64,000 nt of DNA, taken from NCBI GenBank assembly GCA_016793095.1, contig JAEUJQ010000037.1, forward strand, positions 12,244-76,243, given 5' to 3'. How positions within the stretch are numbered: position 1 is the stretch's first letter; each line of letters begins with the position of its first letter. The stretch is from Myxococcaceae bacterium (GTDB lineage: Bacteria; Myxococcota; Myxococcia; Myxococcales; Myxococcaceae). This document shows, one piece after another, positions 28,416-52,848 of this stretch. Both the position numbers and the translations under genes were made by a program. The notes under the pieces were generated by a model. It ran no database searches. It had not been told where the DNA came from and was given only the letters and a program-made list of their open reading frames with translations.

Positions 28416-28465
28416 GTGCGCGATGCTCGATGCTCCCCTCGTGCGGTGGCCCCGAACCCCGTGGA

Positions 28466-28690
28466 GGACTCCGCGCTGGCGAAGCGGCTCGCGGGCGGCC
28501 TCATGCCCGTCGGGCCAGGGCGAGCGCGCCAGGACTCCGCGCTGGCGAAGCGGCTCGCGGGCGGCCTCATGCCCGTAGGGCCAGGGCGAGCGCGCCAGGA
28601 CTCCGCGCTGGCGAAGCGGCTCGCGGGCGGCCTCATGCCCGTCGGCCAGGGCGAGCGCGCCAGGACTCCGCGCTGGCGAAGCGCCGTTCG
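28466..28690. repeat. 66-bp tandem direct repeat x3.3 in a divergent intergenic region
   Basis: The unit ggactccgcgctggcgaagcggctcgcgggcggcctcatgcccgtcgggccagggcgagcgcgcca starts at 28466, 28532 and 28598, with a partial copy at 28664. Confidence 0.8.
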
Positions 28691-28738
28691 GCGGGGGGCA
28701 CTGCGACTGCGGGAGCCTCGAGCGGGTAGGTTCGCCAC

Positions 28739-29050
28739 ATGATGACGCAGACCCTCTTCGAGCGGGCCAGAGCGCTCCAGGCGTCTGGGTTGAGCGCCGA
28801 GTCGCTTCACGCGGCCCTCGTGAAGGAGGGCTACGCCGCAGCAGATGTCGTCGTCATCCTCGGCAGCCTCGGCGCTGGGCCTCAACCCAGACCTGATCCG
28901 ACGGCTGACACTGCTCCGCTCACGGTGGTGAGCCGCATCGCCCGCAGTCGCGTGCTGGTCTGGCTGTTCTTCGTGGCAGTGGCGACGATGTGTGGCGGGG
29001 CGTCATGGGTTGCGTACACGCTGATGGCGGCCTTTCAACGCGGCCGCTGA
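28739..29050 (+). CDS. small hypothetical protein with C-terminal TM segment
   Basis: 103 aa with a C-terminal hydrophobic helix VLVWLFFVAVATM. Confidence 0.35.
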   Translation: MMTQTLFERARALQASGLSAESLHAALVKEGYAAADVVVILGSLGAGPQPRPDPTADTAPLTVVSRIARSRVLVWLFFVAVATMCGGASWVAYTLMAAFQRGR

Positions 29051-29109
29051 GGAGCGGGACGTCTGCACCCTGCGGCTGCCGACTCCCTCGTCTCCAGGGA
29101 GGCCCTCGG

Positions 29110-32750: not shown

Positions 32751-34361
32751 GTGCCTGTTGTCGTCGAGAAGACGGCCCTCGTCTGCGATGCTCGCCCGGT
32801 GGCCGACCCCGTTCAGCTGGTCCTCGAGAGCCGCCGCTCCCACGCGCTTCGTCTCGCCGACGCAGCCGACTACGGCACCTTCCCGAAGACGCTCCCGCCG
32901 GTCGCCGCTGCGATGGGCTTCGCCGACCACGCCTCGTACCTCTCCATCCTCATCGAGGCGGGCAACGAGCTGACGCGCGGCGCGGGGAACAAGCGGCCGT
33001 ACGCGATGCTGGCGCTCCTCGACGGCTACGCGCTCGCGAAGCACGTCCACGGCGTTCCAGTCGCGAAGGGCAAGGCGCTCGCGCCGAAGGCCACGCTCAC
33101 CCGGTTCCTCCGCGCCTCGGCGCGCTCCGGCCCGGCGCTGCTGGCGAGCCCCCACGCCGCCACCGCCCGCGCGCTCATCGAGTCGCTCGGCCCCGACGAC
33201 GACACCGCGCGCGAGGTGATGGCCAACGCGTTCGCCTGCGGCGTGCTGCTGTTCCAGTACGAGCACGGCGCCGCGCTGCCCGGCTTCGAGGCGCTCGCTC
33301 CCGCGCGGGCGAAGCAGCAGAAGGGCGCGGCGAAGACGGTGGTGAAGCACGTCGCCGCGCTCCCGAAGGAGCTCATCGGCGGAGTGATGGCGGCGCCCCA
33401 TGACGACGCGCCCAGGCTCGTCCTGGCCGACTGGCTCACCGAGCAGGCAGACCCCCGGGGAGAGTTCATCCAGGTGCAGTGCGCGCTCGGCCGCGCCCTC
33501 TTCGGCGCCGAAGGGAAGTGGGTGCTCGGCGGCCGCAAGGCGCTGCCGTTCGAGACGCGCGAACAGCTCGAGGCACGCGAGCAGGAGCTGCTCAAGGCGC
33601 ACGAGAAGCAGTGGATCGCGCCCATTCGCAAGGTGGTGCGGCAGTGGGGCTTCAGGCGCGGCTTCGTGAACCACGTCATCACCGACCTCGCGACGTTCGC
33701 GGCCGCCACTGACAGCGCCCTGGCCGAGACGCCGCTCGAGTCCGCGAAGCTCACCGGCTTCAAGGCGACGCACCTGCGGGCGCTGTGCAAGGCCGCGCCC
33801 CACGCGACGTTGGAGACGCTCAACCTCGGCATGAACCGCCTCAATGACGGCGCCGCGGCGCTCTTCGCGTCGCCGTTCCTCTCGAAGGTGACGGGCCTCA
33901 ACCTCGAGGGCAACCCGTTGGGCGACGCGTGCCTGCGCGCGCTCGCCTCGCCGCGCTCCATCCTGCGCCTCGGGCTGTACAACGGCGAGTTCGACGACAC
34001 CGCGTTCTCGTCGCTCGCAAAGGCGCCGTGGTGGGGGTCGCTCACCGGCCTCTCGCTCGCCCGCTGCCAGGCGCTGACGCCGCGAGCGCTCGAGACGGTG
34101 AACGCCGCGGCGGAGCTCGACTGGCTCGTCCTCGACCTCCCCGGCCTGACGGACGCGGACGTCGTGGGCGTCGCGAAGGCGCACCCGAAGCTGAAGCAGC
34201 TCTCCTTCTCCCGCGCGCAGGTCAGCGAGCGCGCTGTCGAGGCCGTCATCGCCGCGCTGCCGACGCTCGGCTTCCTCGAGGTACCGCGCTCGCTCCCGGA
34301 GGCCGCACAGGAACGCCTCCGAGCGCGCTTCGCCGGCACGCGGTGGACGCAGCTCATGTGA
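32751..34361 (+). CDS. TIGR02996-type repeat-companion domain protein with leucine-rich repeats
   Basis: PRLVLADWLTEQADPRGEFIQVQCAL motif, then RNI-like LRRs (LNLGMNRLND..LNLEGNPLGD). GTG start. Confidence 0.65.
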   Translation: MPVVVEKTALVCDARPVADPVQLVLESRRSHALRLADAADYGTFPKTLPPVAAAMGFADHASYLSILIEAGNELTRGAGNKRPYAMLALLDGYALAKHVHGVPVAKGKALAPKATLTRFLRASARSGPALLASPHAATARALIESLGPDDDTAREVMANAFACGVLLFQYEHGAALPGFEALAPARAKQQKGAAKTVVKHVAALPKELIGGVMAAPHDDAPRLVLADWLTEQADPRGEFIQVQCALGRALFGAEGKWVLGGRKALPFETREQLEAREQELLKAHEKQWIAPIRKVVRQWGFRRGFVNHVITDLATFAAATDSALAETPLESAKLTGFKATHLRALCKAAPHATLETLNLGMNRLNDGAAALFASPFLSKVTGLNLEGNPLGDACLRALASPRSILRLGLYNGEFDDTAFSSLAKAPWWGSLTGLSLARCQALTPRALETVNAAAELDWLVLDLPGLTDADVVGVAKAHPKLKQLSFSRAQVSERAVEAVIAALPTLGFLEVPRSLPEAAQERLRARFAGTRWTQLM

Positions 34362-34581
34362 GGGTGAGCGCGCAGCACTCGGGCGGGACGGGTGCCAGCC
34401 CCGGACGAGCCGCCTGACGTGAAAGACAACACGCTGGGACGCCAATCGGTGATGCAGTTCGCCGACACCGTCATGGGCAAGGCCACGCTCACGGCGGCCA
34501 GGGTGTTCGGCGGCCCGGCGGTCGTGGCGACGTCGGTTTCCGCAGCGGGGAGGTCCCCGGGTCGGGCAGAGTCGCTCCTGG

Positions 34582-35316
34582 ATGCGCCGCGTGCTTCCCC
34601 TCCTCGTGACCCTGACTGCCTGCAGCGGAGGAATGGTCGCGCCCGACTCCGGGGCGCCGGATGCGGGTGCTTCCCCGATGGATGCAGGCGCTGGAGCCGT
34701 TGACGCAGGCGTGGTGGACGCTGGGACCGTTGACGCAGGCGCGGTGGACGCTGGGACCGTCGACGCTGGCGCGCTGGATGCTGGCGCCGTCGATGCCGGC
34801 GCTGTCGATGCTGGCGCCGTGGACGCCGGCGTGATGGGCCCGTCCTGCTCCGGTCTGCCCGACGTCGTCACCTTCGACTTCACGTGGAGCGACTCGAGCA
34901 GCGTGCTCACGATGCAAGCAGGTGGCGTGCGCGCCGACACCATCGCCGTGGGCCGCATCACGGTGCCCACCACCGCTGCCATGCCGTTGGCGCAACCGGG
35001 GCAGGTGCGCTTCGTCGAGTACATCGACGGCCAGGCGCAGCGGCAGATGACGCTCTCACGGTTCCCGTGCGACTTCCGCGGCTTCGTGCCCGGTGGCGTC
35101 AGCCGCACCGACCCGACCGGCGTGAGCTTCCCCGTCGTCTGGTCCAACGACATCAACACGCAGCTCATCTTCCGGCTCTCACCGCCCGGCGCCGTCGTCC
35201 TTCCGCCGGGCACCACCTGGTACGTCAGCCTGCGCAACGTCGACTGGGTCACTGGCGCGCCCTCGTGCGGCACGGCCACCTGCAACGGGCTCTTCAACTT
35301 CTTCGCCCCGCGATGA
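34582..35316 (+). CDS. lipoprotein with (VDAGx)n repeat linker
   Basis: Lipobox LVTLTACSGG. Pentapeptide repeats AVDAG/TVDAG x~12 from a 15-bp tandem DNA repeat at 34690-34850. Cys-containing C-terminal domain. Confidence 0.55.
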   Translation: MRRVLPLLVTLTACSGGMVAPDSGAPDAGASPMDAGAGAVDAGVVDAGTVDAGAVDAGTVDAGALDAGAVDAGAVDAGAVDAGVMGPSCSGLPDVVTFDFTWSDSSSVLTMQAGGVRADTIAVGRITVPTTAAMPLAQPGQVRFVEYIDGQAQRQMTLSRFPCDFRGFVPGGVSRTDPTGVSFPVVWSNDINTQLIFRLSPPGAVVLPPGTTWYVSLRNVDWVTGAPSCGTATCNGLFNFFAPR

Positions 35317-35319
35317 CGC

Positions 35320-36621
35320 TCACCCTTCGAGGGTGACGGCGAAGCGCAGCACCAGGCCGGGCAGGGGCTCGATGAGGTCGCCCACCTCGAGCGTTGCGCG
35401 CGGCGTCGCCCGGCCGTTCACCCGCAGCAGCGCGACGCCGAGGTCGTCGAACACCACCCAGCCTTCGTCGCGACGCACGATGCGGCACAGCTGCTCGGGC
35501 ACCTTCGGGCCACGCACGATGACCTGGCTCGCCGTCGCCGCGCCGAGCCGCGTGTCTGCCGCGAGCCGCATGCGGAACCCGGGGTACACCGAGACGCCTT
35601 CAGGGCACGACACCAGCTCCAGGCACGCGCTGCGGGTGCGCTCGACGAAGCCGCTCCACTCGAGCCGGGGCAGCCGCTCACGCGCCCGTGCCGCCACGGC
35701 CTTCGGCAGCTCGAGGTCGTTCACCGCGAGGCCCAGCGACAGGTGCTCGAGCGTGTTCGCGAAGGCGGCCTCTCCCACCAGCTCGACGACGGCCGGCACC
35801 ACGAGCTCGGGCGGCGGCTCCTTCGGCCAGCCCGGCGTCCCGCGCGGCGCCAGCACGCGCTTCGCCGGTGTGCCCACCACGTAGTCGATGGTGAGGGACG
35901 AGAGCGTGCGCGCCACGGGCAGCGTGCCCAGCTGCGCGAGGTGCCAGAAGAGCCCCGGAGCGCCGACGACGGCGTGACGCGCGACCCGCACCGAGGTCAG
36001 CAGGCCCGCGGCGCTGAAGCTCGGCTGCACCGCCTGCGTGCGCGCACTCTCGGAGAGCGGGCCGAGCACCTTGAACCTCTCGGCCTCGACCGAGCGCCGG
36101 TCACTCGCCAGCCAGTCGCCGAGTGGGTCGCCGTGCTCCTTCAGGAAGTCCATGTAGACCGCCAGCGTGGCGGCGTCGTCCGGCCGCACGGCCAGCGCTG
36201 CCTCGAGCCCCTCGTGCCGCGCGGTCTGGAGCGGCCGCTCCCGCACCGCCAACACCAGGCCTGTCGAGAAGACGAGGTGGTCGCCGTCGGCGAGCGCGTA
36301 CGAGAGGGCGAGGTCGAGCGTCTGCCCGTTGAGCGAGCAGGCCACCGGCAGACCCTTCTCGGTCCATGCCTTCGGTTCGCCACGCAGGCGCCCGATGAGC
36401 AGGTCGGCGCCCTGGAGCACGTCGACCTGCAGCCGGCAGCGCGACGAGCGGCCCACCCGCAGGGGCGCCTCCTCCGTCAACTGGAAGCGCGCCCCCGGGC
36501 GCATGGCGTCGGGAGCATCGGGAGGCAACGCGACGACCTCTGCGAACACCGGGGAATGGTGGCACGGATCGGGCTCGACGGGCGTCGGCGACGCGGCGGC
36601 GTCCGTGCACGACCAGGGCAT
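35320..36621 (-). CDS. FHA-domain protein containing a TIGR02996-like motif
   Basis: Only the 3' ~1.3 kb of the 787-aa ORF looks genuine. It has FHA-like segments at both ends and VYMDFLKEHGDPLGDWL in the middle. The start is within a few bp of 36621. Confidence 0.5.
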   Translation of the reverse strand: MPWSCTDAAASPTPVEPDPCHHSPVFAEVVALPPDAPDAMRPGARFQLTEEAPLRVGRSSRCRLQVDVLQGADLLIGRLRGEPKAWTEKGLPVACSLNGQTLDLALSYALADGDHLVFSTGLVLAVRERPLQTARHEGLEAALAVRPDDAATLAVYMDFLKEHGDPLGDWLASDRRSVEAERFKVLGPLSESARTQAVQPSFSAAGLLTSVRVARHAVVGAPGLFWHLAQLGTLPVARTLSSLTIDYVVGTPAKRVLAPRGTPGWPKEPPPELVVPAVVELVGEAAFANTLEHLSLGLAVNDLELPKAVAARARERLPRLEWSGFVERTRSACLELVSCPEGVSVYPGFRMRLAADTRLGAATASQVIVRGPKVPEQLCRIVRRDEGWVVFDDLGVALLRVNGRATPRATLEVGDLIEPLPGLVLRFAVTLEG

Positions 36622-36732
36622 GCGCACCCACGGTTGTCTGCCGTACCTCGGGGGGTGTCGCGAGCGAGGTGCCGTCGCACGCACTCCTGACGTATGAGGC
36701 TGCGCCGCAAGCTCTTTCCTGAAGGGGGACCG

Positions 36733-41399: not shown

Positions 41400-41650
41400 G
41401 TCCAGGTTGTCGCGCCCGCAGCGCGCCTGGTGACGCCCTTCTCGGCGCGCGACAAGCGACTGCCACCCGCCGTGCTCCTCGGGAATCTGAGGGCGGTGTA
41501 ACCCCAGGCCGTCGCTGCTGATTGCGCCAGCGCAAGTCGTGCCCGACGCCGTCGCACGACACACGACAGCCGCTGGACGACTCTGCCGAGGTCCCCGCCC
41601 CCGCGCAGATTCAGTTGCCGACCGCGAGCGACTCTCCCAGTGTCGCGCTG

Positions 41651-42778
41651 ATGAACCTCTCCCAGACGGCCGCGAGCCCGGCCGACCTCGAGCGCCTGCG
41701 CGCAGCCCTGCGACGCGCGAACGGCACGCGGCAGGTGCGGCTCCTGACCGAGGCGCAGGTGGAAGAGACGGTCGCGCGTGCGCTCACCTCGTCAGACGGC
41801 CTCGCCGTGCTGCACGGAGGCGAGGCGAACGATGGGACCCAACGCACGACGTTGTGTCTGGCGGTGAGAGAGGGCGACTTCGTGACGGTGGGCATCGGCC
41901 TGTCCGGCGCGGCCGGCGCGGGTCCCGGGCGCACGTGGAAGACGTTGCAGCCGTGGAGCCGCACGGACGCCTCGAAGAACACGCCTCGCCTGCAGGCCTG
42001 GGCCCGCGCGAAGGCACCTGACCGCGTTCGGCTCCGCGTGGTTGCAGGCGGTCGCGCCCGACCCGCAGCGCCCGACGACTCCGCGCGACTCCTCGCGGCT
42101 GTCCTCGCCTCGCCGGCCGACGACGCGCCGCGCGCGGTGTACGCCGACTGGCTGCTGGAGCGGGGGGACCCGCACGGCGAGTTCATCTCGCTGCAGCTCG
42201 CCCTCGCCCGCCGGGCCAACGCGGCGAAGCAGGCGCGCGCGGACGCGCTCCTCGCTCAGCACCGCCTCGCCTGGACCGAGGCGCTGCGCCAGGTGTCGCT
42301 GAAGCAGCGCTTCGAGCGGGGCTTCGTCTTCGAGCTCGAGCTGAAGGCCACGACGTTCGTGCTCGAGGCCGCGCGGCTCTTCTCGCTGGCCCCGCTCACC
42401 TCCGTCATTCTCCGAGCGGCCGAGCTGCCGGTGCTGAGGAAGGTGGTCGCCCTGCCCCAGCTCGCCCGACTGACGCACCTCGGGCTCGACCGCACGGTTG
42501 GTGACGCAGGCGCGCGGCTGCTCGCGGGCGCGCCGGGCCTGCGGCAGCTCGAGGCGCTGAGCTGCGCCGGCTGCGGCTTCACCGCCGAGGGGTACGAGGC
42601 CGTCTTGAGCGCGATGCCTGCGCTGAAGACGCTGAGGGTGCGGGCCGTCGACGACGCGCTGGCTGCGCTGGTGTTGCCTCGCCGGAAGCTGGTGCTCCAG
42701 GCGGCGCGCCCGGCCGCCACCCCACTGGTGCGCCAGCTCGCCCGCGAAGGCCGCCTCGAGCTCCAGCCCCGCGCCTGA
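41651..42778 (+). CDS. TIGR02996-type repeat-companion domain protein with LRRs
   Basis: PRAVYADWLLERGDPHGEFISLQLAL motif followed by LRR-like segments. Start chosen at the internal Met. Confidence 0.6.
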   Translation: MNLSQTAASPADLERLRAALRRANGTRQVRLLTEAQVEETVARALTSSDGLAVLHGGEANDGTQRTTLCLAVREGDFVTVGIGLSGAAGAGPGRTWKTLQPWSRTDASKNTPRLQAWARAKAPDRVRLRVVAGGRARPAAPDDSARLLAAVLASPADDAPRAVYADWLLERGDPHGEFISLQLALARRANAAKQARADALLAQHRLAWTEALRQVSLKQRFERGFVFELELKATTFVLEAARLFSLAPLTSVILRAAELPVLRKVVALPQLARLTHLGLDRTVGDAGARLLAGAPGLRQLEALSCAGCGFTAEGYEAVLSAMPALKTLRVRAVDDALAALVLPRRKLVLQAARPAATPLVRQLAREGRLELQPRA

Positions 42779-42781
42779 CGG

Positions 42782-42991
42782 TCACAGCGCGAGCAGCAGG
42801 CCCGCCGTCAGCAGCCCCACGAAGCCGGTGAAGGCCCAGCGGTGGACCCGCGCGGCGTGGCGCAGCTCCATGAACTCGAGGCCGACGGCGACGGCCTTGA
42901 GCGCCGCGAGCACGAGCGCCAGCCACAGGCGGCCGCTCGCCACGGACGCGCAGGTGAGGCCAACGAGGAGGGCCCAGGTCGCCGCGCGCAT
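42782..42991 (-). CDS. norF: small 2-TM membrane protein, NorF / bacterial CoxIV-like
   Basis: About 70 aa with two hydrophobic helices. Start ATG overlaps the norE stop (ATGA), and it is last in the nor operon. Confidence 0.45.
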   Translation of the reverse strand: MRAATWALLVGLTCASVASGRLWLALVLAALKAVAVGLEFMELRHAARVHRWAFTGFVGLLTAGLLLAL

Positions 42992-43557
42992 CACGCCCTC
43001 ACGAAGAACAACGGGAAGAGGAAGAACCACACCACGTCACACAGGTGCCAGAAGAGGGCCGCGCCGGCATAGGCGGTCTCGACGTCGTCGAAGACGGCGC
43101 GCCGCAGCGAGACGAAGAGCAACAGCGCCACACCCACCACCACGTGGACGAAGTGGAAGCCGGTGGCCAGCAGGTACGCGTCCCAGAAGTCCGAGGAGCC
43201 GAGCCGGTGACCAGCGCCGAGGTGCGCGCTGCAGTCGACGGCCTTCACCACGAGGAACGCGGCGCCCACGCCCGCGGCGGCCAGCAGCCACCGGCGCGTG
43301 TCGTCCAGCCGCGTCTGGCGGAGCCGGTGCACCCCCTGAGCGGCGAGCGCCCCGCTCGTGATGAGCAGCAGCGTCAACGTGAGCCCGAGCGCCGGGCTCA
43401 GCGCCCCCTGGCCGGCCGCGAATTCGTCAGGCTGGGCGCGTCGCACGCCCGCCACCAGCGCGAAGACGATCGCGAAGGTGACGAGCTCGAGGCCGACGAT
43501 GAGCCAGAGCAGAACGCCTCCCGGTGGGTCGTCGAGCGCGCGCGCCTTCATCGTCAT
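42991..43557 (-). CDS. norE: cytochrome oxidase subunit III-like protein NorE
   Basis: 188 aa with 5 TM segments, CoxIII-like (HLGAGHRLG..FHFVHVV). Overlaps norD by 4 bp. Confidence 0.65.
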   Translation of the reverse strand: MTMKARALDDPPGGVLLWLIVGLELVTFAIVFALVAGVRRAQPDEFAAGQGALSPALGLTLTLLLITSGALAAQGVHRLRQTRLDDTRRWLLAAAGVGAAFLVVKAVDCSAHLGAGHRLGSSDFWDAYLLATGFHFVHVVVGVALLLFVSLRRAVFDDVETAYAGAALFWHLCDVVWFFLFPLFFVRA

Positions 43558-45458
43558 CGGCGCAGCGCGGTGCTCGTCACCTTCGCGAGCGCGTTCACCA
43601 GGTCATCGGGCCTCGACACCACCGACGCGCGGCCGTGCCCGAACATCGACGGCAGCCAGGCCCGCGCGGCGGGGTCCACCGCGAGCGCGTGCGTCACCAC
43701 CCCCGCGCCCTGCGCGTCCAGCACGGCCCGGTGCACGTCGGCCACCCCGTAGCGGCCCTCGTAGCGGTCGACGTCGCTGGGCTTGCCGTCCGAGACGAGC
43801 AGCAGCAGCTTCTGCTTCGCCCCGCACGCCAGCAGCTCGCTCGTCGCGTGGCGGATGGCGGGCCCGATGCGCGTGAAGCCGTGCGGCTCGAGGCTGGCGA
43901 GGCGCTGGGCGCCGACGCTCCACGGCTCGGGGAAGCCCTTGACGACGAGGAAGCGGCAGTCGCGGCGCGTCTGGCTGCAGAAGGCCGCCACCGCCACCTC
44001 GTCGAAGAGCCCCTCGAGCGCGTCGCCGAGCGCGAGCACCGCTTCCTTCTCGACGTCGAGCACCCGGCGGTTGGCGACCCACGCGTCGGTGGACAGCGAG
44101 GCGTCGAGCAGCACCAGCACTGCGGTGTCGCGCGAGTGGCGGCGGCGCGTCGCGTACAGGCGGCTCTCGTTGCACTCACCGGCCCGCAGCGCACCGTAGC
44201 GCGCCACCAGCGCGTCGAGGTCGACGTCGGTGCCGGTGCGCTGCCGCAGCTTCCACGCGCGCGAGGCCTCGAGCTGCTCGAAGACGGCCCGCAGGCCCTG
44301 GGTGGTGCGGGTGAGGCGCGCGCGCAGGGCGCTCACCTGGGCGTCCGCGCCGGGCACCACGTCCACCGCGCGGGTCGTCAGCCGGCACCACGCCCGCTTC
44401 CACGAGCGCGTCGTCTCGTCCCACTCGTCGTAGAGCGCCTCGGCCGGGCCGGCGAGCGAGTCGTCCACCTCGCCCACGGCGCCGTCGAGCAGCACGTCAG
44501 CCTGGTAGAGGCTGCCCGCGCGCTGGTGGCTGCGCACCACCTGCCGCAGGTCGAGCTCGTCGAGCGCCTTCTGGTGCGCCGCCAGCTCGTCGTCGCCGTC
44601 GATGCGCTTGCTGCCGCCCTTGTACTCCTCGAGCGTGTGCACCTTCTCGAAGCTGTGCACGAGCGGGTTCTCCTGCAGCTGCTGCTCGGGCTCCTGCACG
44701 CGCTCGGCGCGGGTGGCCTTCTTCTTCTTCAGCTCGGTGCCGCCGGGGAGCGCGCGCTCGTCGTCCGTCGCGGGCTTCACCGAGGCGGGCTTCTGGGGCG
44801 GCGGCAGCAGGGCGCTCCAGAAGGGCACCGGCGGCACGGTGAAGGCCCTCGAGAACCAGCCCCGGCGCGCGGACGGGAGGTCGACCACGCCGCGCTCGAG
44901 CGCACTCCGGGCCCAGCTCCACGCGTCGGCGGCGAGCGTCGCGTCTTCGGTGACACCCAGCGTCCGGCGCACCAGCGCTTCGAGGGCGTGGGCGCGGGCG
45001 TCGTCTGGCGGAGGCGCGCGGCGGGCGCTCGCGGCGGCGCGCTCGAGGGCCGTCAGGGTCTTCTCGAGCGGGGGGAAGGACTCGACGACGGCCGCGCGGA
45101 CGCGAGGCGCGAGCAGGGCGAGGCCGGCGAGCGAGGTCTCGGCCCGGTCGGGCACCAGCCGCGCTGCGGTGACGGCCCAGACGACGTGCACCACGAGGGC
45201 GTCGCGGTTGAGGACCTGCGTCGGGGCGAAGTCGACGACGCGCGGGAGGAACAGCGCCTCTCCAGCGACGGCGGGTGCGTCGTCGGTGAGGGTGACGGTG
45301 ACGGCGCGGCCGGTGAGGAGCCGCGCGAGGGCCTCGAGGCGGGCGCGCTCGGGTTCGACCTCGACGCGCCGGGCGAGCACCTCGTCGGGAGGCGCGCGCG
45401 AGAGGAGCCGGCGGGTGCCGCTCCACGCGACGCCGAAGAGCGCCTCATCCCACGACAT
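43554..45458 (-). CDS. norD: nitric oxide reductase activation protein NorD (VWA domain)
   Basis: 634 aa with a C-terminal von Willebrand A domain (VLVLLDASLS..LLLLVSDGKPSD). Confidence 0.75.
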   Translation of the reverse strand: MSWDEALFGVAWSGTRRLLSRAPPDEVLARRVEVEPERARLEALARLLTGRAVTVTLTDDAPAVAGEALFLPRVVDFAPTQVLNRDALVVHVVWAVTAARLVPDRAETSLAGLALLAPRVRAAVVESFPPLEKTLTALERAAASARRAPPPDDARAHALEALVRRTLGVTEDATLAADAWSWARSALERGVVDLPSARRGWFSRAFTVPPVPFWSALLPPPQKPASVKPATDDERALPGGTELKKKKATRAERVQEPEQQLQENPLVHSFEKVHTLEEYKGGSKRIDGDDELAAHQKALDELDLRQVVRSHQRAGSLYQADVLLDGAVGEVDDSLAGPAEALYDEWDETTRSWKRAWCRLTTRAVDVVPGADAQVSALRARLTRTTQGLRAVFEQLEASRAWKLRQRTGTDVDLDALVARYGALRAGECNESRLYATRRRHSRDTAVLVLLDASLSTDAWVANRRVLDVEKEAVLALGDALEGLFDEVAVAAFCSQTRRDCRFLVVKGFPEPWSVGAQRLASLEPHGFTRIGPAIRHATSELLACGAKQKLLLLVSDGKPSDVDRYEGRYGVADVHRAVLDAQGAGVVTHALAVDPAARAWLPSMFGHGRASVVSRPDDLVNALAKVTSTALRR

Positions 45459-45717: not shown

Positions 45718-46488
45718 TCAGAAGCTCAAGTCGACGAGGTCCTGCAGGGCGCGCGCGGTGGGCGCGTCGTCGGTCAGCGGCTGCACGAGCGCTGCGCCGC
45801 AGGCCACCCGTGGAGGCAGCCCCGCCGCCATCAGCCGCGCGGCCATCACCAGCAGGCGCGTCGAGACGGTCTCGGCCAGCGCGAGCGCCTCCTGCCCGCG
45901 CACCTTGTTCGCCCACGCCACGAGCCGCTTCGCCAGCTTCACGTCGAGGCCCGTCTCACCGTGCAGCACCTCGACCTCGACGTCCTCGGGCGGGTAGCCG
46001 AACTGGAGCGAGACGAAGCGCTGACGCGTCGACGGCTTCAGCTCCTTGAGCCCGCGCCGGTAGCCGGGGTTGAACGAGGCCACCACCATGAAGCCGGGCG
46101 GCGCGTCGAGCACCTCGTCGTTGCGGTCGAGGTACAGCCTGCGCCGGTGGTCCGTCAGCGGGTGCAGCAGCACCACCACGTCCTCGCGCGCCTCGGCCAC
46201 CTCGTCGAGGTAGAGGATGGCGCCCTGCTTCACCGCGCGCGTCGCGGGGCCGTCCTGCCAGACGGTGTCACCGCCGCGCACCAGCCAGCGCCCCACGAGG
46301 TCGGCCGCGCTCGTCTCGTCGTTGCACGCGACGGTGATGAGCGGGCGCGCGAGTCGCTCGGCCATGAACTCGACGAAGCGCGTCTTGCCACAGCCGGTGG
46401 GGCCCTTGAGCAGCACCGGCAGCCGCTGGGCGAAGGCGCGCTCGAAGACGCTCACCTCATCGCCAACGGGCCGGTACCAGGCAGGCAT
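45718..46488 (-). CDS. norQ: MoxR-type AAA ATPase NorQ/CbbQ
   Basis: LLKGPTGCGKTRFVEF Walker A, ILYLDEV Walker B, and a 256-aa length. Confidence 0.85.
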   Translation of the reverse strand: MPAWYRPVGDEVSVFERAFAQRLPVLLKGPTGCGKTRFVEFMAERLARPLITVACNDETSAADLVGRWLVRGGDTVWQDGPATRAVKQGAILYLDEVAEAREDVVVLLHPLTDHRRRLYLDRNDEVLDAPPGFMVVASFNPGYRRGLKELKPSTRQRFVSLQFGYPPEDVEVEVLHGETGLDVKLAKRLVAWANKVRGQEALALAETVSTRLLVMAARLMAAGLPPRVACGAALVQPLTDDAPTARALQDLVDLSF

Positions 46489-46491
46489 GGC

Positions 46492-47877
46492 TCAGCCCCT
46501 CGCGACGGCGGGCGCTCCCGGGGGCACCTCGGCTGGTGGCTCCGGCGTCGCCTGCTTCAGGGGCGCGTTGGGCATGCCGTAGCGGATGAAGTCCCACACG
46601 AAGGCGATGATGCCACACGAGAAGAGGCTCGCCGCGAGGATGAGGCCCCAGAAGTGCACCTCGAGCTCCTTCTGCACCGTGAGGAACTCCATGCCCGCGC
46701 GCCGCTCGAGCACCACCTGCGAGACCCCGGCGACCGCGAAGGCCAGCGTCATCGCCGTCATGCCGATGTTCGAGGTCCAGAAGGCGAAGCCCGCCGACGC
46801 CTGCTCGTACACCTTGCGGCCGGTGAGCAGCGGCATCGCGTAGGCGATGATGGCGAGCACCAGCATCGCGTAGGCACCCCAGAAGGCCATGTGCCCGTGC
46901 ATCGCGGTCACCAGCGTGCCGTGGGTGTACATGTTCACCTGCGGCAGCGTGTGCGCGAACCCGAGGAAGCCGGCGCCCACGAAGCTCATCAGCGCGCAGC
47001 CGATGGTCCACAGCAGCGCGACCCGGTTCGGGTGCGTACGGCCACCCTTCTTCGCCATCGCGAACGCGTAGATGGCCATGCCCAGGAACGCGAGCGGCTC
47101 GAGCGCGCTGAACACGCCGCCCACCATGAGCCAGTACCGGGGCGTGCCGATGAAGTAGTAGTGGTGGCCGGTGCCCAGCACGCCCGAGAGGAACGTGAAG
47201 CCGACGATGACGTAGAGCCACTTCTCGATGATCTCCCGGTCGACGCCGGTGAGCTTGATGAGCAGGTACGAGAGGATCGCGCCCATGATCAGCTCCCACA
47301 CGCCCTCGACCCACAGGTGCACCACCCACCACCGCCAGAAGCTGTCCACCGTCTGGTTGTCGGTGGGGATCATGCCCGGCAGGTAGAGCAGCGCGGCGGC
47401 GAGCAGGCCGAAGAAGAGCACCATCGAGGTGGTGGACTTCTTCTCGCTCTTCCACACCGTCCACCCGATGTTGCCGATGAAGAGCAGCACGTCGATGACG
47501 ACGAGGAAGTCGAGGGGCCGGGGGATCTCGAGGAACTTGCGGCCCTCCCACCAGTTCAGGTGGAAGCCGATGATGGCCGTGACGCCCGTGACGACGAGGG
47601 CGATGAGCTGCACCCAGGCCAGCTTCGGCCACGCGAGCTCGCGATCGCACTCGTCGGGGATGATCCAGTACGCGGCGCCCATGAAGCCGGCGAGCAGCCA
47701 CATCACCAGCAGGTTGGTGTGCGTCGCGCGGGCGGCGTTGAAGGGAATCCACTCGTGCAGGCCGTCCATGCCCACGCGGGCGAAGCCCATGATGAAGCCG
47801 TAGACGAGCTGCAGGGACAGCAACAGCATGCACGTCGCGAAGAAGCCCCACGCGACCTTCTGGCTCTGGAACTTCAC
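46492..47877 (-). CDS. norB: nitric oxide reductase subunit B (cNOR catalytic subunit)
   Basis: 12-TM haem-copper-oxidase fold with conserved His ligands (GTGHHYY, MHGHMAFWGAY) and a 461-aa length. Confidence 0.9.
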   Translation of the reverse strand: MKFQSQKVAWGFFATCMLLLSLQLVYGFIMGFARVGMDGLHEWIPFNAARATHTNLLVMWLLAGFMGAAYWIIPDECDRELAWPKLAWVQLIALVVTGVTAIIGFHLNWWEGRKFLEIPRPLDFLVVIDVLLFIGNIGWTVWKSEKKSTTSMVLFFGLLAAALLYLPGMIPTDNQTVDSFWRWWVVHLWVEGVWELIMGAILSYLLIKLTGVDREIIEKWLYVIVGFTFLSGVLGTGHHYYFIGTPRYWLMVGGVFSALEPLAFLGMAIYAFAMAKKGGRTHPNRVALLWTIGCALMSFVGAGFLGFAHTLPQVNMYTHGTLVTAMHGHMAFWGAYAMLVLAIIAYAMPLLTGRKVYEQASAGFAFWTSNIGMTAMTLAFAVAGVSQVVLERRAGMEFLTVQKELEVHFWGLILAASLFSCGIIAFVWDFIRYGMPNAPLKQATPEPPAEVPPGAPAVARG

Positions 47878-48575
47878 TGGGCGACCTCCTTCTTGGTCTT
47901 CTGCGACGAGAGGAACGTGACGAGCTCACCGAGCTGCGCGTCGTCGAGCGGCAGCTTCGGCATGGTGGTTCCGGGCTTCACGCCAGCAGGGTCCTTCAGC
48001 CACCGCTCGAGGTACGCGGAGTCGAAGCGGTCACCCACGCCGTCGAGGGCGGGGCCGACGGTGCCTCCTGCTCCACCGAGCGCATGACAGGTGACGCAGA
48101 TCTGCGTGAAGACCTGGGGACGGGTCGGTGCGTTGGCGACCGCCTGCTGCGCCGCGGCCCCCAGCGTGGGCTTCGCGGGGAAGCCGTTGAGGTCCACCTT
48201 CCCCACCCACTCGAAGAAGGCGATCAGGTCTTCGATCTCCTCGTCCTTGAAGTGGTAGTTCGTCATCTTCCGCTCGCCGGGGTACATGGCCTGCGGGTCT
48301 TTGATCTGCGCACGGATGAAGGCTGGCCCACGGCGCTCGTAGACCTTCGTCAGCTCGGGCGCGTAGTAGGCGCCTTCACCAAACAACGTGTGGCAGCCCA
48401 TGCAGTTGTTCCGCTCCCACAGGTCCTTGCCCCGCTTCACCGGCTCGGTGAGCGCTGACGCGCGGGTCCGCTCGGGGATCTGCTGAAACGTGTCCCACGT
48501 GAGCGCGAGGAACACCGAGGCTGTCACCGCCGTGCCTCCCAGGAAGAAGGCCTTCGCTGCCGATTTCGAGAGCAT
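47874..48575 (-). CDS. norC: nitric oxide reductase subunit C with an extra C-terminal cytochrome c domain (di-haem)
   Basis: N-terminal TM anchor and two CXXCH motifs (CMGCH, CVTCH). Overlaps the norB start by 4 bp. Start taken at the internal Met MLSKSA. Confidence 0.8.
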
Positions 48576-48647
48576 GGGCGGCGCCCTCTTCAGGCCGCGT
48601 GCCAGCGCGCCGTCCCCGGTCACCACGCCGCGCCCCTGCGACAATCT

Positions 48648-48672
48648 GTTCCACGTCGTTTCACTCTGGAAC
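48648..48672. promoter_or_regulatory. perfect inverted repeat GTTCCA-N13-TGGAAC in the norC/nirK divergent promoter region
   Basis: Seen directly in the 193-bp intergenic region. Candidate operator, regulator unknown. Confidence 0.2.
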
Positions 48673-48768
48673 CAGAATCAGAAACACTCATGCCGCATCG
48701 GGCGGCCGTTACGTGGTCTTTCGTTTGCAGAGCCGTCGCGTCCACTCGTCGTCTCGAACCGAGGCTCC

Positions 48769-50163
48769 ATGCACGTCATCGTTCTCGCCGCGTTGTTGGG
48801 CGCGTTGCCCGAAGAGAAGGCCGTTCTGACCGACCCGCCGAACGTGCCGCCGCCCATCACGCGCACGACGCCGGCGAAGGTGCTCATCGAGCTCGAGGTG
48901 GTCGAGAAGGTGATGCAGCTGGCCGACGGCGTGGACTACACGTTCTGGACGTTCGGCGGCTCGGTGCCGGGCAAGTTCATCCGCATTCGCGAGGGAGACA
49001 CGGTCGAGTTCTGGCTCGCGAACCACCAGAACAACAAGCTGCCGCACAACATCGACCTGCACGCGGTGACGGGCCCTGGCGGAGGCGCGGCGAGCACCTT
49101 CACGGCGCCGGGCCACAAGAGCCGCTTCACCTTCATGGCGCTCAACCCGGGCCTCTACATCTACCACTGCGCGACGGCGCCGGTCGGCATGCATGTGGCG
49201 AACGGCATGTACGGCCTCATCTACGTACAGCCGAAGAAGCCGCTGCCGAAGGTGGACCGCGAGTACTACGTGGTGCAGGGCGACTTCTACACCGACGCGG
49301 ACTTCGGCCAGAAAGGGCTGCAGCCGTTCTCGATGAAGCGCGCCATCGACGAGCGCCCGTCCTACGTCGTCTTCAACGGCAGCGCGCTCTCGCTGGTCGG
49401 TGAGCGGGCGCTCAAGGGCAAGGTGGGCGAGACGGTGCGCATCTTCGTCGGCAACGGCGGCCCCAACCTCGTCTCGAGCTTCCACGTCATCGGCGAGATC
49501 TTCGACCGCGTGTACTTCGAAGGCGGCACCAAGACGCAGGAGCACGTGCAGACCACGCTCGTGCCCGCGGGCGGCAGCGCCATCGTCGAGTTCAAGCTCG
49601 ACACCGACGGCACCTACATCCTGGTGGACCACTCCATCTTCCGCACCTTCAACAAGGGCTCGCTGGGCATGATGAAGGTCGAGGGCCCCGGCCGGAAGGA
49701 CATCTACTCGGGCAAGGAGGTCGACGAGGTGTACCTGGGCGACGAGTCGGTCGCGACGTCGGTGAAGGCGACCCCCTCGGCCGCCGCGACCCCGGCCGGG
49801 AAGCCCGACGGCAAGGCGCTGTACCTGACGAGCTGCGCGATGTGCCACCAGGCCGAAGGCCAGGGCGTGCCCGGCGCGTTCCCGCCGCTCGCGAAGAGCG
49901 ACTACCTGGCGAACCTCGCGAACGGCAAGCGGGGCGAGCTCGTCGAGATCGTGCTGCGCGGCAAGACGGGCAAGATCACCGTCAACGGCCAGGAGTACAA
50001 CGGCGTGATGACGGCGGTGGCGGGCCTCGACGACGAGAAGCTGGCGACGCTGCTGACGTACGTGACGAGCACCTGGGGCAACAAGGCGCCGGCCTTCACC
50101 ACCGACGAGGTGAAGAAGCTGCGAGAGGCGTTGCCCGAGGTGAAGCCGGCAGGCGGGCACTGA
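48769..50163 (+). CDS. nirK: copper-containing nitrite reductase with C-terminal cytochrome c domain
   Basis: Cupredoxin type-1 and type-2 Cu ligands ([19 protein letters not shown]) and a C-terminal CAMCH haem motif. Confidence 0.9.
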
Positions 50164-50181
50164 GGCAGCGCGGAGGCGGTC

Positions 50182-50919
50182 GTGACGGTCACCGTGTTGC
50201 TCACGTCCGCGCTCCTCGGCCAGCCGATGGTGGCCATCCCCAAGGGGCGGTTCGCGCCGCTCTTCGGGCTCGATGTGGGGCAGACGTCGTTCGTGGTGGG
50301 GGCGTTCCACATCGACCCGCGGCCGGTGACGCGCGCGCAGTTCGCCGCGTTCCTCGAGGCGAACCCGCAGTGGGCGAAGGGCCGGGCGCCGCGCGCGGTC
50401 GCGGACGAGAAGTACCTCGACGGGGTGGGCGCGACGCCGCCGTCGCTGCCGGTGACGCAGGTCTCGTACTTCTCGGCGCGCGCGTACTGCGAGTGGAGGG
50501 GCGGGCGCCTGCCGACGACGCTCGAGTGGGAGTACGTGGCCGCAGCCGACGAGACGCGCCACGACGCCTCCCGCGAGGCCGACTTCGCCCAGCGCATCCT
50601 CGACTGGTACGGCAAGCCCAACCGCCCCGACGACCTCGCCCAGCCCGGCAGCCCGAGGAACGTGTACGGCGTCGAGGCGCTGCACGGGCTCGTCTGGGAG
50701 TGGACCGACGACTTCAACGCGCTCTTCGTCTCGGGGGACAACCGGCAGGACGGTGACAAGAGCGCGAAGCTGATGTGCGGCTCGGGCGCGACCGGCAGCG
50801 CCCGCCGCGAGGACTACGCGGCCTTCATGCGCTACGCGATGCGCTCGAGCCTCACCCCACGCACGACGCTGCCGCGGCTGGGGTTCCGCTGCGCTGCCAC
50901 CGAGAAGAGGTCGCCATGA
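50182..50919 (+). CDS. nirV: formylglycine-generating-enzyme-family protein NirV
   Basis: FGE-sulfatase signature (RGG..LPTTLEWEYVA, GLVWEWTDD, RLGFRC) directly downstream of nirK. Confidence 0.75.
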   Translation: MTVTVLLTSALLGQPMVAIPKGRFAPLFGLDVGQTSFVVGAFHIDPRPVTRAQFAAFLEANPQWAKGRAPRAVADEKYLDGVGATPPSLPVTQVSYFSARAYCEWRGGRLPTTLEWEYVAAADETRHDASREADFAQRILDWYGKPNRPDDLAQPGSPRNVYGVEALHGLVWEWTDDFNALFVSGDNRQDGDKSAKLMCGSGATGSARREDYAAFMRYAMRSSLTPRTTLPRLGFRCAATEKRSP

Positions 50920-51488
50920 GGACGACGCTGGTGTGCTGGCTCGTCTCGCTGTCGGCGATGGCCGCGCCCGACGAGAAGAACGTGCTCGCGCTGAGAACGT
51001 CCTGGGTCGCGGAAGACGGCAAGAAGCAGTCGCTCGAGGCCTTCAAGGGGCGTTGGTACGCGCTCACCTTCATCTACACCTCGTGCGCCGGCAGCTGTCC
51101 GCTCACCACGAAGAAGCTCAAGCGCCTCGACGCGGCCCTCGAGAAGGCTGGCAAGCCGCTGGAGCTCGCGGTGGTGAGCCTCGACCCGACCCACGACACC
51201 CCGGAGCAGGTGAAGCAGTACCGCGCGCGCTACCAGCTCGAGCAGGCCTCGCGCTGGCGCATCCTCGTGGGCGACGACGCGCAGGTGCGCACCCTCACCA
51301 TGCTGCTCGAGTTCAAGTACACGAAGAACCCCGAGTCTGGCGTCATCCTGCACGACAACACCGTCTACCTCGTCGCGCCCGATGGCGCGGTGAAGGCATC
51401 GATGTCGTCGCTGGACGAGCCGATGGAGGACTTCATCGCGAAAGTCCCCGCACGCCCTGCACCAGCAGCCCGAGCGCCTTCTCGATGA
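50916..51488 (+). CDS. SCO1/SenC copper chaperone
   Basis: Signal or TM N-terminus and thioredoxin-like CAGSCP metal-binding motif. Overlaps the nirV stop by 4 bp. Confidence 0.75.
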   Translation: MRTTLVCWLVSLSAMAAPDEKNVLALRTSWVAEDGKKQSLEAFKGRWYALTFIYTSCAGSCPLTTKKLKRLDAALEKAGKPLELAVVSLDPTHDTPEQVKQYRARYQLEQASRWRILVGDDAQVRTLTMLLEFKYTKNPESGVILHDNTVYLVAPDGAVKASMSSLDEPMEDFIAKVPARPAPAARAPSR

Positions 51489-52848
51489 AGGCCGGGTACG
51501 GCGGCGCCATCAACGTGCGCGCGGGCGCGAGGCGGCTCGCCACCACCACCGAGCGGGCGTGGGAGAACGCCTCGAAGCCCTCACGCCCGTGGTACGCGCC
51601 CATGCCGCTCATCCCGACGCCGCCGAAGGGCAGCGCTTCCTGGGCGAAGTGCACCAGCGTGTCGTTGACGCACGCGCCACCCGAGGTGACCCGCGAGAGC
51701 ACGTCGTCGACCCGGCGGCCGTCGTCGTCGAAGTAGTAGAAGGCCAGCGGGTGCGGTCGCGAGGTGATGCGGGCGAGGGCCTCGTCGAGGGTGCCGAACG
51801 TCTCGATGGGCAGCACCGGGCCGAACAGCTCCTCCTGCATCGCCGTCATCGACTCGTTCACGCCGAGGAGCGCGACCGGCGGCAGCACCCGCGCGCCGGG
51901 GCTCACGTCGCTCAGCGGCTCCACCTGCGCGCCCTTCGCTCTCGCGTCGGCGACGTGGGCCTCGAGCCGGTGCAGCGCCTTCTCATTGATGACCGACGTG
52001 AAGCCCTCGAGGCGCGGGTAGAAGCGCTCGACGGCGCGCCGCAGCTCGACCAGCAGGCGCTGCTCGCTGCCCCGCTCCACCAGCACGTAGTCAGGGGCGA
52101 TGCACGTCTGGCCGCCGTTGAAGAGCTTGCCGACGATGATGCGCTCGGCCGCCTGCGCGAGGTCGTACGACGGGTGAATCAACGTGGGCGACTTCCCGCC
52201 CAGCTCGAGCGTCACCGGCGTGAGGCTCTTCGCGGCGGCCTGGGCGACGAGCTTGCCGACGGCGGTGGAGCCGGTGAAGAGGAGATGGTCGAGGGGCAGC
52301 GCCGTGAGCGCGCGGGCCACCTCGGGGCCACCGGTGACGACGGCCACCTCGTCGCCGCTGAACCGCCCTGCCACCGCGCTGGCGAGCACCTCGCTGGTCG
52401 CAGGCGTCAGCTCTGACGGCTTCACGAGCGCGCGGTTGCCCGCGGCGAGCGCGGCGGCCAGCGGCGAGAGGGCGAGGTTCACCGGGTAGTTCCACGGCGC
52501 GATGATGCCGACGACGCCGAGCGGCAGGAACTCGACGAAGGCCTTCGACGGCAGGAAGAACGGGTGCGCGCGCTCGGGGCGTCGCGTCATCCACGCCTTC
52601 ACGTGTTTGCGGGCGTAGCGGACGCCGTCGAGGGTGAGGAAGACGTCGGCGATGAGCGTCTCAGCCCGGGTGCGCCGGCCGAAGTCCGACGCGGCCGCTC
52701 TGGCGAAGTCGTCCCGGTGCTCGACCAGCAGCGCGTCGAGGCGCTCGAGGCGGTCTTCCCGCTCGGCGAGCGACGGGTTGGGCGCGGCGCGCTGGGCGGC
52801 GCGAAGCCTGTCATAGGCACGCTGCACGGGGTCGAACGGGGCCTGCAT
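51433..52848 (-). CDS. aldehyde dehydrogenase (ALDH3/coniferyl-aldehyde-dehydrogenase-like)
   Basis: LELGGKSP, catalytic Cys in FNGGQTCIAPDY, and EELFGPVLPI. Only the 3' 471 aa of the long ORF is used. Confidence 0.85.
   Translation of the reverse strand: MQAPFDPVQRAYDRLRAAQRAAPNPSLAEREDRLERLDALLVEHRDDFARAAASDFGRRTRAETLIADVFLTLDGVRYARKHVKAWMTRRPERAHPFFLPSKAFVEFLPLGVVGIIAPWNYPVNLALSPLAAALAAGNRALVKPSELTPATSEVLASAVAGRFSGDEVAVVTGGPEVARALTALPLDHLLFTGSTAVGKLVAQAAAKSLTPVTLELGGKSPTLIHPSYDLAQAAERIIVGKLFNGGQTCIAPDYVLVERGSEQRLLVELRRAVERFYPRLEGFTSVINEKALHRLEAHVADARAKGAQVEPLSDVSPGARVLPPVALLGVNESMTAMQEELFGPVLPIETFGTLDEALARITSRPHPLAFYYFDDDGRRVDDVLSRVTSGGACVNDTLVHFAQEALPFGGVGMSGMGAYHGREGFEAFSHARSVVVASRLAPARTLMAPPYPAFIEKALGLLVQGVRGLSR

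Follow-up and report, generated by a model that had tools for sequence, protein, structure and literature searches.

The nirK region of the window, that is, the whole 64,000-nucleotide stretch analysed here, probably represents a denitrification module of the standard kind, with two steps (nitrite to NO, then NO to N2O), on the chromosome of a Myxococcaceae/Archangiaceae bacterium, in which a NirV-like protein and a Sco protein are accessories of the copper nitrite reductase NirK. What is shown for the region is which genes it contains, the ligands of their products, how the operons are built and that the synteny is conserved. The genes lie in two divergent groups separated by a 193-bp control region, and the features referred to below are as follows.

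42782-43030, minus strand: small COX4_pro membrane protein (Pfam COX4_pro, E 7.6e-9)
42991-43557, minus strand: norE-like, COX3 (Pfam E 6e-14)
43554-45458, minus strand: norD, VWA-domain partner of NorQ (weak Pfam VWA match; place after norQ conserved in relatives)
45718-46488, minus strand: norQ, AAA+ (MoxR/CbbQ) maturation ATPase (Pfam AAA_5, CbbQ_C)
46492-47877, minus strand: norB, catalytic subunit of a cytochrome c-dependent NO reductase (3O0R_B, E 3.4e-117)
47874-48575, minus strand: norC, 233 aa, cytochrome c subunit of the cNOR, extended at its C-terminus by an additional class-I cytochrome c domain (two CxxCH motifs in all)
48576-48768, no strand: nirK/norC control region, 193 bp, divergent
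48648-48672: inverted repeat GTTCCA-N13-TGGAAC in the nirK/norC intergenic region
48714-48729, plus strand: sigma-54-type -24/-12 element upstream of nirK, conserved among relatives
48769-50163, plus strand: nirK, 464 aa, copper nitrite reductase of three domains, the C-terminal one a tethered cytochrome c
50182-50919, plus strand: nirV-like, FGE-fold accessory protein with an N-terminal signal-like segment, 245 aa
50916-51488, plus strand: sco, 190 aa, thioredoxin-fold protein of the Sco/SenC type, predicted to be periplasmic and to bind copper

The tethered nitrite reductase and its origin

The nirK frame runs unbroken from the ATG at 48769, which has GAGG upstream, to the stop at 50161-50163, and its product, judged by its domains and ligands, is a haem c-tethered, three-domain copper nitrite reductase (CuNiR). 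A short signal peptide is followed by a cupredoxin core (residues ~17-315), a linker containing Tyr322, and a haem c domain (~340-455). Pfam returns two cupredoxin/MCO matches and Cytochrom_C (residues 347-436), and the NCBIfam model TIGR02376 (Cu_nitrite_red) scores 351.3 bits, above its curated equivalog cutoff of 296.3. The initial annotation had read the protein as a two-domain cupredoxin core with a C-terminal CAMCH cytochrome c, and these searches together with the 3ZIY alignment bear this out: the CAMCH motif (residues 356-360) lies in the same uninterrupted ORF as the core, and all three type-2 copper (T2Cu) histidines are there.

Ralstonia pickettii NirK (3ZIY_A) matches at E 4e-187, collinear over residues 17-455 of the window protein, and 2ZOO_A matches at E 4.5e-172, collinear end to end. 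In the alignment the type-1 copper (T1Cu) ligands (H93, C134, H142, M147), the T2Cu ligands (H98, H133, H288) and the catalytic Asp and His (D96, H239) are all present, each numbered one below its RpNiR counterpart, the haem ligands C356xxC359H360 and axial M414 fall on those of the RpNiR haem domain, and the gate tyrosine Y322 (DEVYLGD) aligns with Y323 of RpNiR (DSVYLGD). These residues are identical and at equivalent positions in both RpNiR and PhNiR, to which the window NirK is ~60-70% identical and with which it has the linker motif YSGKExDxVYLGD in common. Unlike those two enzymes, it comes from a myxobacterium rather than a proteobacterium, and its signal peptide is very short and has no charged N-region, as is also the case in myxobacterial relatives. 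The linker tyrosine (RpNiR Tyr323) is stated to be invariant across the haem c-tethered CuNiR class (PMC6038957), whose mechanism has been published (PMC6038957; PMC13324648). The window NirK would be exported to the periplasm and form the usual trimer, where electrons would pass from the tethered haem c to the type-1 and then the type-2 copper, at which nitrite would be reduced to NO, with the linker tyrosine probably gating the site as it does in the R. pickettii enzyme.

The possibility that nirK was acquired horizontally had been raised earlier, with phylogeny and GC3 named as checks, and neither favours it. In the NirK tree the window protein falls within a coherent clade of Myxococcaceae/Archangiaceae sequences, to which it is 75-89% identical. 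GC3 in all cluster genes (0.85-0.97) is the same as in the flanking genes and stays inside the host range of 0.83-0.97. Two observations might still suggest that the whole nirK-nirV-sco/nor cluster is a recently acquired island, namely a dip in total GC (0.67 at 46-50 kb versus ~0.72 in the flanks) and the scattering of this NirK class over many phyla, the Polyangia NirKs falling in a clade separate from that of the window protein. The dip, however, arises from GC1 and GC2, and thus from amino-acid composition; the short signal peptide and the sigma-54-type promoter motif upstream of nirK are common to the Myxococcaceae/Archangiaceae clade; and no mobile-element genes flank the cluster. Because GC3 is host-like and NirK sits within its family clade, there is no sign of recent transfer, and a recent island is very unlikely.

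NirV-like and Sco genes beside nirK

A NirV-like gene lies directly 3' of haem-fused nirK in all 74 related loci, drawn from at least eight phyla, and a Sco gene then follows it in 65 of 68 loci, the other three having no Sco. The loci span Myxococcota, Bdellovibrionota, Verrucomicrobiota, Beta- and Gammaproteobacteria, Nitrospiraceae, Methylomirabilia and Entotheonellaceae. Both helper genes are absent beside the non-fused nirK of Azospirillum and Maritalea, and in N. gonorrhoeae a NirV-like gene follows aniA with no adjoining Sco. The layout of the window is not new; this is an ordinary denitrification cluster, arranged as it is in Ralstonia and other well-known bacteria. On annotated Ralstonia solanacearum megaplasmids, norB-DUF2249 diverges from the aniA/nirK locus with its FGE-family and SCO-family genes, and the gene order, the strands, the divergent nor and the overlap of 4 bp by which the FGE-family gene runs into the SCO gene are all shared with the window. 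The two loci differ in that the Ralstonia NorB is of the single-subunit quinol type (2.3-kb gene), whereas the window encodes a cNOR (norCBQD-EF) with a dihaem NorC, and identity is 45% for the NirV-like protein and 23% for Sco.

The nirV-like gene starts at a GTG (50182) preceded by GGAGG, 18 nt past the nirK stop and on the same strand. Its product matches Pfam FGE-sulfatase (E 3.6e-29), and a Foldseek search with its AF2 model (pLDDT 84.7) retrieves FGE structures with probability 1.0 and TM ~0.55. The initial annotation of an FGE-family NirV downstream of nirK stands as regards domain and position, but is weakened as regards identity with NirV itself. Classical NirV proteins (Rhodobacter sphaeroides, Sinorhizobium meliloti) have the FGE-sulfatase domain and the place directly 3' of nirK in common with the window protein, although the nirK upstream of them is of the two-domain class I and no Sco gene follows nirV in S. 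meliloti. The match to S. meliloti NirV, whose ORF was located by hand, is weak (27% identity over 126 aa, E 2e-5). The window protein therefore probably belongs to another subfamily, and "NirV-like" is the more cautious label for it. The first S. meliloti tblastn match was rejected as an unrelated FGE paralogue beside an aldo/keto reductase, and at E 1e-10 tblastn with the NirV-like protein finds matches in Ralstonia, Neisseria and Azoarcus only.

The Pfam match, together with the database name of the relatives ("formylglycine-generating enzyme family protein"), could be taken to mean that the gene product is a genuine formylglycine-generating enzyme, with a sulfatase as its target, and that the gene lies next to nirK by coincidence. 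We consider this extremely improbable, as both catalytic, copper-binding cysteines of FGE are missing (the positions of human Cys336 and Cys341 align to alanine), the gene adjoins nirK in every related locus, and no sulfatase gene is seen in the annotated parts of the window. The residues that are invariant in the NirV-like family are instead C199, W172-E173-W174, D177 and R188, and Cys199 lies away from the FGE cysteine positions. The segment of the AF2 model that holds Cys199 (residues 181-210) is too low in confidence for a metal site to be deduced from the model.

The ATG of sco (50916) overlaps the nirV-like stop as ATGA, a 4-bp overlap through which the two genes are translationally coupled. 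Sco matches Pfam SCO1-SenC (E 7.6e-23) and has the motif C57-AGS-C61, in agreement with the earlier description of a CxxxC SCO1/SenC gene with a 4-bp overlap. It aligns with B. subtilis Sco 1ON4 (E 2.9e-18), CxxxC and His included, and C57, C61 and H146 are invariant in 68 of 68 relatives. Compared with B. subtilis Sco (1ON4/1XZO) and other Sco/SenC chaperones of CuA assembly, the fold, CxxxC and His are alike, but sequence inspection predicts a cleavable signal peptide and neither a membrane anchor nor a lipobox, and the gene is tied genomically to nirK rather than to cytochrome oxidase genes. A thioredoxin fold and an additional weak AhpC-TSA match would also suit a thiol-disulfide oxidoreductase of the TlpA/ResA type, not a copper donor, which would reduce the CxxCH of the fused cytochrome or the Cys ligand of NirK. 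Such a role would have Sco accompany the haem-fused NirK class only, and Sco is indeed found with haem-fused nirK, whereas in Neisseria, Azospirillum and Maritalea, whose nirK is non-fused, no Sco gene follows it. The copper-site His, invariant along with both cysteines, would however be superfluous for a pure reductase, and the nearest structural relatives are copper-binding Sco proteins, which makes an oxidoreductase role unlikely.

Copper delivery thus remains the preferred role for Sco, and only synteny with nirK indicates its target. The initial annotation had also named NorB as a possible recipient, but NorB is part of a cNOR that uses iron and lacks a copper site, and Sco tracks nirK, not nor, so service to NorB is unsupported. 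The nirV-like and sco genes are co-transcribed and translationally coupled downstream of nirK, and we hypothesize that the NirV-like protein and a soluble periplasmic Sco form a NirK-dedicated pair that loads or maintains the copper centres of NirK. Against such a pair, RpNiR has reportedly been made as an active recombinant enzyme without NirV-like or Sco partners, and Sco does not adjoin in N. gonorrhoeae or in the three exceptional loci. Furthermore, one paper states that NirK needs no other genes to mature (PMC4770552), and the activity of NirV is still described as unknown (PMC10356946).

The nor operon and electron transfer

The true start of norC is the Met at 48575, which leaves the 193 bp between norC and nirK, and the 233-aa product is 100% identical to a database protein. 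Residues 24-157 of the long norC ORF (anchor and first CxxCH domain) match P. aeruginosa NorC (3O0R_C, E 8e-33), while residues ~160-256 form an additional class-I cytochrome c domain, containing CVTCH, which matches the cytochrome c domain of caa3 subunit II (2YEV_B), c2 and SoxX. The earlier report of a haem-fused NorC encoded divergently from nirK is thus correct. Compared with Pseudomonas aeruginosa cNOR (NorBC, 3O0R), NorB shares the FeB and haem ligands, and the NorC membrane anchor and haem c domain are collinear, but the window NorC carries ~95 extra residues, comprising the class-I cytochrome c and second CxxCH, much as subunit II of caa3 oxidases carries a fused cytochrome c. NorB keeps the haem b/b3 and FeB ligands of 3O0R_B (THTNLL, HLWVEG, GHHYY, HGHMAF); with the FeB ligands HLWVEG and GHHY of a cNOR intact, it has no copper site. 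Two CxxCH motifs are present in 120 of the 120 top NorC relatives, and our literature search found no paper describing a dihaem or fused NorC. Dihaem NorC is widespread.

The norCBQD-EF product, a cytochrome c-type NO reductase, would remove the NO formed by NirK, with NorQ and NorD probably serving the insertion of non-haem iron. The extra cytochrome c of NorC may act as a built-in electron entry domain, by analogy with caa3 oxidases.

From the presence of two haem-fused proteins, the initial annotation had proposed a self-contained electron relay. In its strongest form, haem-fused NirK and haem-fused NorC would be a co-adapted relay or supercomplex that needs no soluble carrier. Their genes diverge from a shared control region only 193 bp apart, the same pairing is seen at five loci (NorB 73-92% identical) spread over Myxococcota, Verrucomicrobia and Entotheonellaceae, and tethered CuNiRs have been called self-contained systems (PMC13324648). 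Yet a dihaem cNOR adjoins haem-fused nirK in just 5-7 of 80 loci. At most haem-fused nirK loci a cNOR is missing within 8 kb, or the nor present is qNOR-like or canonical (canonical NorC at one locus, qNOR-like NorB at at least six plus Ralstonia), and dihaem norCBQD operons are conversely found with no nirK within 7 kb. The extra cytochrome domains of NirK and NorC are not detectably related (E 0.04), and transfer between the two proteins would serve no thermodynamic purpose: both are terminal electron sinks, so neither NirK nor NorCB feeds the other, and each needs an upstream donor (for example bc1, ACIII or a soluble cytochrome c). Because each fusion occurs without the other, the relay is unsupported, and we regard it as quite unlikely.

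Control region and implications

Within the control region, the putative sigma-54-type element suggests that nirK may be under sigma-54-dependent control. Scanning the window with the consensus TGGCACG-N4-TTGCW at up to three mismatches gave 56 matches against ~99 expected by chance; with matches below the chance expectation the scan is uninformative, and only conservation among relatives argues for the candidate element. A sigma-54 activator (GAFTGA) was not found in the window or in 12 myxobacterial loci. No sigma-70 promoter or terminator above chance was detected in 48400-51800, and no RNA family was found by Rfam across the whole window. A second sigma-54 promoter, for norC, was considered at a conserved TGGCACG immediately upstream of norC on the minus strand (48589-48604) and rejected; its -12 part reads CTGAA, and a transcript begun there would have virtually no leader and would lack the RBS.

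A broader reading, which we consider possible but doubtful as a whole, is that the NirV-like protein (lacking the FGE cysteines and with its invariant Cys199) and soluble Sco constitute a dedicated copper insertion or repair system that is inherited specifically together with the cytochrome-tethered form of NirK, in at least eight phyla, that dihaem NorC defines a "caa3-like" subclass of cNOR, and that myxobacterial nirK is controlled by sigma-54 and an enhancer. Our literature search found no account of a NirV-like/Sco copper system, of a caa3-like cNOR subclass or of a sigma-54-controlled myxobacterial nitrite reductase, and nothing on SenC/Sco linked to nirK or on nirV with formylglycine.

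No nosZ was found in the annotated parts of the 64-kb window and the nitrite-to-N2O module is complete, so this Myxococcaceae-type soil bacterium is a potential source of N2O. The cluster by itself adds little; the broader comparison, in which the NirV-like/Sco helper pair nearly always accompanies NirK of the cytochrome-tethered class, is more useful. Ralstonia solanacearum, which is genetically tractable and has the same operon, would be an easy system in which to ask how NirK is supplied with copper.

The haem-fused nitrite reductase

The operon and its neighbours comprise:
48769 to stop at 50161-50163, + strand: nirK, an open frame from the ATG at 48769 with GAGG before it; 464 aa
from a GTG 18 nt past the nirK stop, + strand: NirV-like gene with GGAGG ahead; 245-aa FGE-sulfatase-domain protein
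from an ATG overlapping the NirV-like stop as ATGA, + strand: SCO1/SenC gene; 190 aa
51433-52902, - strand: aldehyde dehydrogenase gene, convergent with sco
47874-48575, - strand: norC, with its true start at Met 48575, 193 bp from nirK; 233 aa
minus strand: nor operon in the order norC, norB, norQ, norD, COX3-like norE, small COX4_pro protein
flanks: genes for a TIGR02996/LRR-type protein, ABC transporter components, an acyltransferase, a GntR regulator and a GMC oxidoreductase

Open reading frames and domain searches confirm the initial annotation of nirK, the NirV-like gene and SCO1, in both position and gene call. NirK combines a multicopper-oxidase/cupredoxin core with a Cytochrom_C domain (Pfam, residues 347-436) and scores 351 bits against the NCBIfam copper nitrite reductase equivalog (cutoff 296). 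Residues 17-455 align end to end with residues 18-459 of the Ralstonia pickettii haem-copper enzyme RpNiR (3ZIY; E 4e-187), and the Pseudoalteromonas enzyme PhNiR (2ZOO) also matches (E 4.5e-172). Each functional residue lies at the RpNiR position minus one, with RpNiR numbering checked in PMC6038957.

Functional residues of NirK, from alignment to RpNiR
T1Cu ligands: H93, C134, H142, M147
T2Cu ligands: H98, H133, H288
Catalytic Asp and His: D96 and H239
Linker gate Tyr: Y322
Haem ligands: C356-x-x-C359-H360, M414

The haem motif thus falls inside the nirK frame and the T2Cu histidines are present, which upholds the call of a haem-fused enzyme. Enzymes of this class have been studied in depth. 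About 30% of nirK denitrifiers reportedly have an extended CuNiR, and RpNiR and PhNiR are the two forms with a C-terminal cytochrome that have been characterised (PMC13324648). The NirK signal peptide (48769-48810) is unusually short and lacks a basic N-region, a feature common to the myxobacterial relatives that supports the chosen start, whereas the leaders of other lineages are long, conventional or lipoprotein-like.

The NirV-like and Sco helper genes

In a tblastn search with window proteins as queries across 80 related loci, the gene directly 3' of haem-fused nirK, in the same orientation, was the NirV-like gene at all 74 loci with enough sequence; at 65 of 68 a Sco gene came next. Three loci (L016, L035 and L066) carry haem-fused nirK and the NirV-like gene but, over several kb of sequence further 3', no Sco gene. 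The loci compared come from Myxococcota, Bdellovibrionota, Verrucomicrobiota, Beta- and Gammaproteobacteria, Nitrospiraceae, Methylomirabilia, Entotheonellaceae and others. On the megaplasmids of Ralstonia solanacearum OE1-1 and R. wenshanensis, norB-DUF2249 diverges from nirK as nor does here, and nirK is followed by genes annotated "formylglycine-generating enzyme family protein" and "SCO family protein", with the same 4-bp overlap. In Neisseria gonorrhoeae, norB diverges from aniA, and the next gene after aniA is NirV-like (39% identity), with no Sco alongside. Azospirillum and Maritalea have a non-fused nirK with neither helper. This gene order is therefore an old and widespread one, already found in model genomes and annotated before in Ralstonia and Neisseria. 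Three leads remain of interest: the NirV-like/Sco pair, NorC with its second haem and a candidate sigma-54 promoter.

Sco aligns with Bacillus subtilis Sco (E 2.9e-18) over the CxxxC motif and His, 68 of 68 relatives keep C57, C61 and H146, and the identification as a Sco protein is convincing. The NirV-like protein has the FGE fold (AF2 model, pLDDT 84.7; Foldseek matches to FGE structures, probability 1.0). It is not a true FGE, since alanine takes the place of each catalytic copper-binding cysteine (human C336 and C341) in the alignment. Residues C199, W172-E173-W174, D177 and R188 are invariant in the family, and the C199 loop is modelled with low confidence. The initial call of "NirV" holds for an FGE-family gene after nirK; kinship to the classical NirV of Sinorhizobium meliloti is distant (27% identity over 126 aa, E 2e-5), which makes "NirV-like" the more accurate name.

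The activity of NirV is still described as unknown (PMC10356946), NirK maturation has been stated to need no other genes (PMC4770552), and our literature search turned up no report of a connection between Sco and NirK. Given that the Sco site is intact and the synteny conserved, we infer that the pair may act in copper loading or maintenance. The 3' ends of sco and the convergent aldehyde dehydrogenase gene overlap by 56 nt (51433-51488), with no terminator-like structure between them.

Dihaem NorC and the proposed electron relay

NorB matches P. aeruginosa cNOR (3O0R_B, E 3e-117) with haem ligands and FeB site (HLWVEG, GHHY) intact, and is a cNOR without a copper centre; the suggestion that SCO1 might metallate NorB is therefore unsupported. 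NorC, read from 48575, is identical to the database protein P0001, "cytochrome c [Myxococcaceae bacterium]", and agrees in length with relatives. In the long ORF, residues 24-157 align with P. aeruginosa NorC (E 8e-33), and the last ~95 form an added class-I cytochrome c with a CVTCH motif. Among solved structures, the closest to this added domain include the cytochrome c attached to subunit II of caa3 oxidase. Such a dihaem NorC is common: two CxxCH motifs are present in every one of the 120 best database relatives (62-100% identity over the full length). Our literature search found no paper describing it or this cNOR variant.

The initial annotation had proposed that haem-fused NirK and NorC form a self-contained electron relay, which the comparison does not support. 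First, a dihaem cNOR adjoins haem-fused nirK at five of the 80 loci (L001, L021, L024, L039 and L056), with two more partial; canonical NorC occurs at one, and a qNOR-like NorB at no fewer than six, as also in Ralstonia. Second, each fusion occurs alone, dihaem norCBQD operons standing at L087 and L088 with no nirK within 7 kb. Finally, no relationship is detectable between the two fused cytochrome domains (E 0.04), and NirK and NorCB are both electron sinks. The two fusions seem to be combined in modular fashion instead of forming a co-adapted relay, and each fused cytochrome is most readily interpreted as an entry port built into its enzyme and still dependent on a donor upstream.

Control region, origin and surroundings

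About 40 nt 5' of the nirK ATG, TGGTCTTTCGTTTGCA (48714-48729, +) has sigma-54 -24/-12 geometry, and its pattern, TGG-N8-TTGC[AT], has only three instances in the window, counting both strands; a scan with a loose sigma-54 consensus was uninformative. The element recurs exactly, at the equivalent offset, in five myxobacterial relatives (L003, L004, L005, L006 and L008); L001, L007 and L011 retain GG...TTGCA while the surrounding sequence diverges. An inverted repeat, GTTCCA-N13-TGGAAC (48648-48672), lies 42-66 nt 5' of the candidate. No sigma-70-like site was found upstream of nirK, and neither the window nor 12 related myxobacterial loci encode a GAFTGA activator. The putative sigma-54 promoter before nirK stands as a lead, not as an established result. 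On the norC side, a perfect TGGCACG (48589-48604, -) lies 14-29 nt 5' of the start, and L001 shares it. The corresponding -12 part reads CTGAA, and as a promoter the site would leave almost no leader.

Horizontal acquisition, raised in the initial annotation, is not indicated by codon usage or phylogeny. Among one-per-species genomes, the nearest NirK loci are Myxococcota, Archangiaceae and Myxococcaceae MAGs (75-89% identity), against 60-64% for other phyla, and a neighbour-joining tree places the window NirK within a coherent Myxococcaceae/Archangiaceae clade, with Bdellovibrionota next and Polyangia elsewhere. Total GC, about 72% in the window, drops to 0.67 at 46-50 kb. This dip is not a codon signal: GC1 of the cluster is low, and its GC3 (nirK 0.94, nirV-like 0.97, sco 0.85, norB 0.96, norC 0.88, norQ 0.95, norD 0.97) falls within the 0.83-0.97 of the rest of the window. 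These host-like values and the NirK relationships give no sign of recent transfer.

The flanking genes are unrelated to the cluster. No nosZ, nar/nap or NO-sensor gene occurs among the annotated window proteins, which exclude 5346-9489, 28853-30228 and 34361-36691, where the GC3-based gene filter called no ORF; no Rfam family was found in the window. Adjoining the nor operon end, a 418-aa TIGR02996-domain protein ("Gemmata repeat-mate" type; 41522-42778, +) continues into leucine-rich-repeat-like sequence with no Pfam match. Two large minus-strand genes, of kinds that are typical for myxobacteria, have no bearing on the denitrification cluster: 24825-28853 codes for a 1342-aa protein with AAA_16 (STAND-like) as its sole match, and 18672-21362 for one of 896 aa that contains RCC1 repeats, ASH and Dictyostelium-type repeats.
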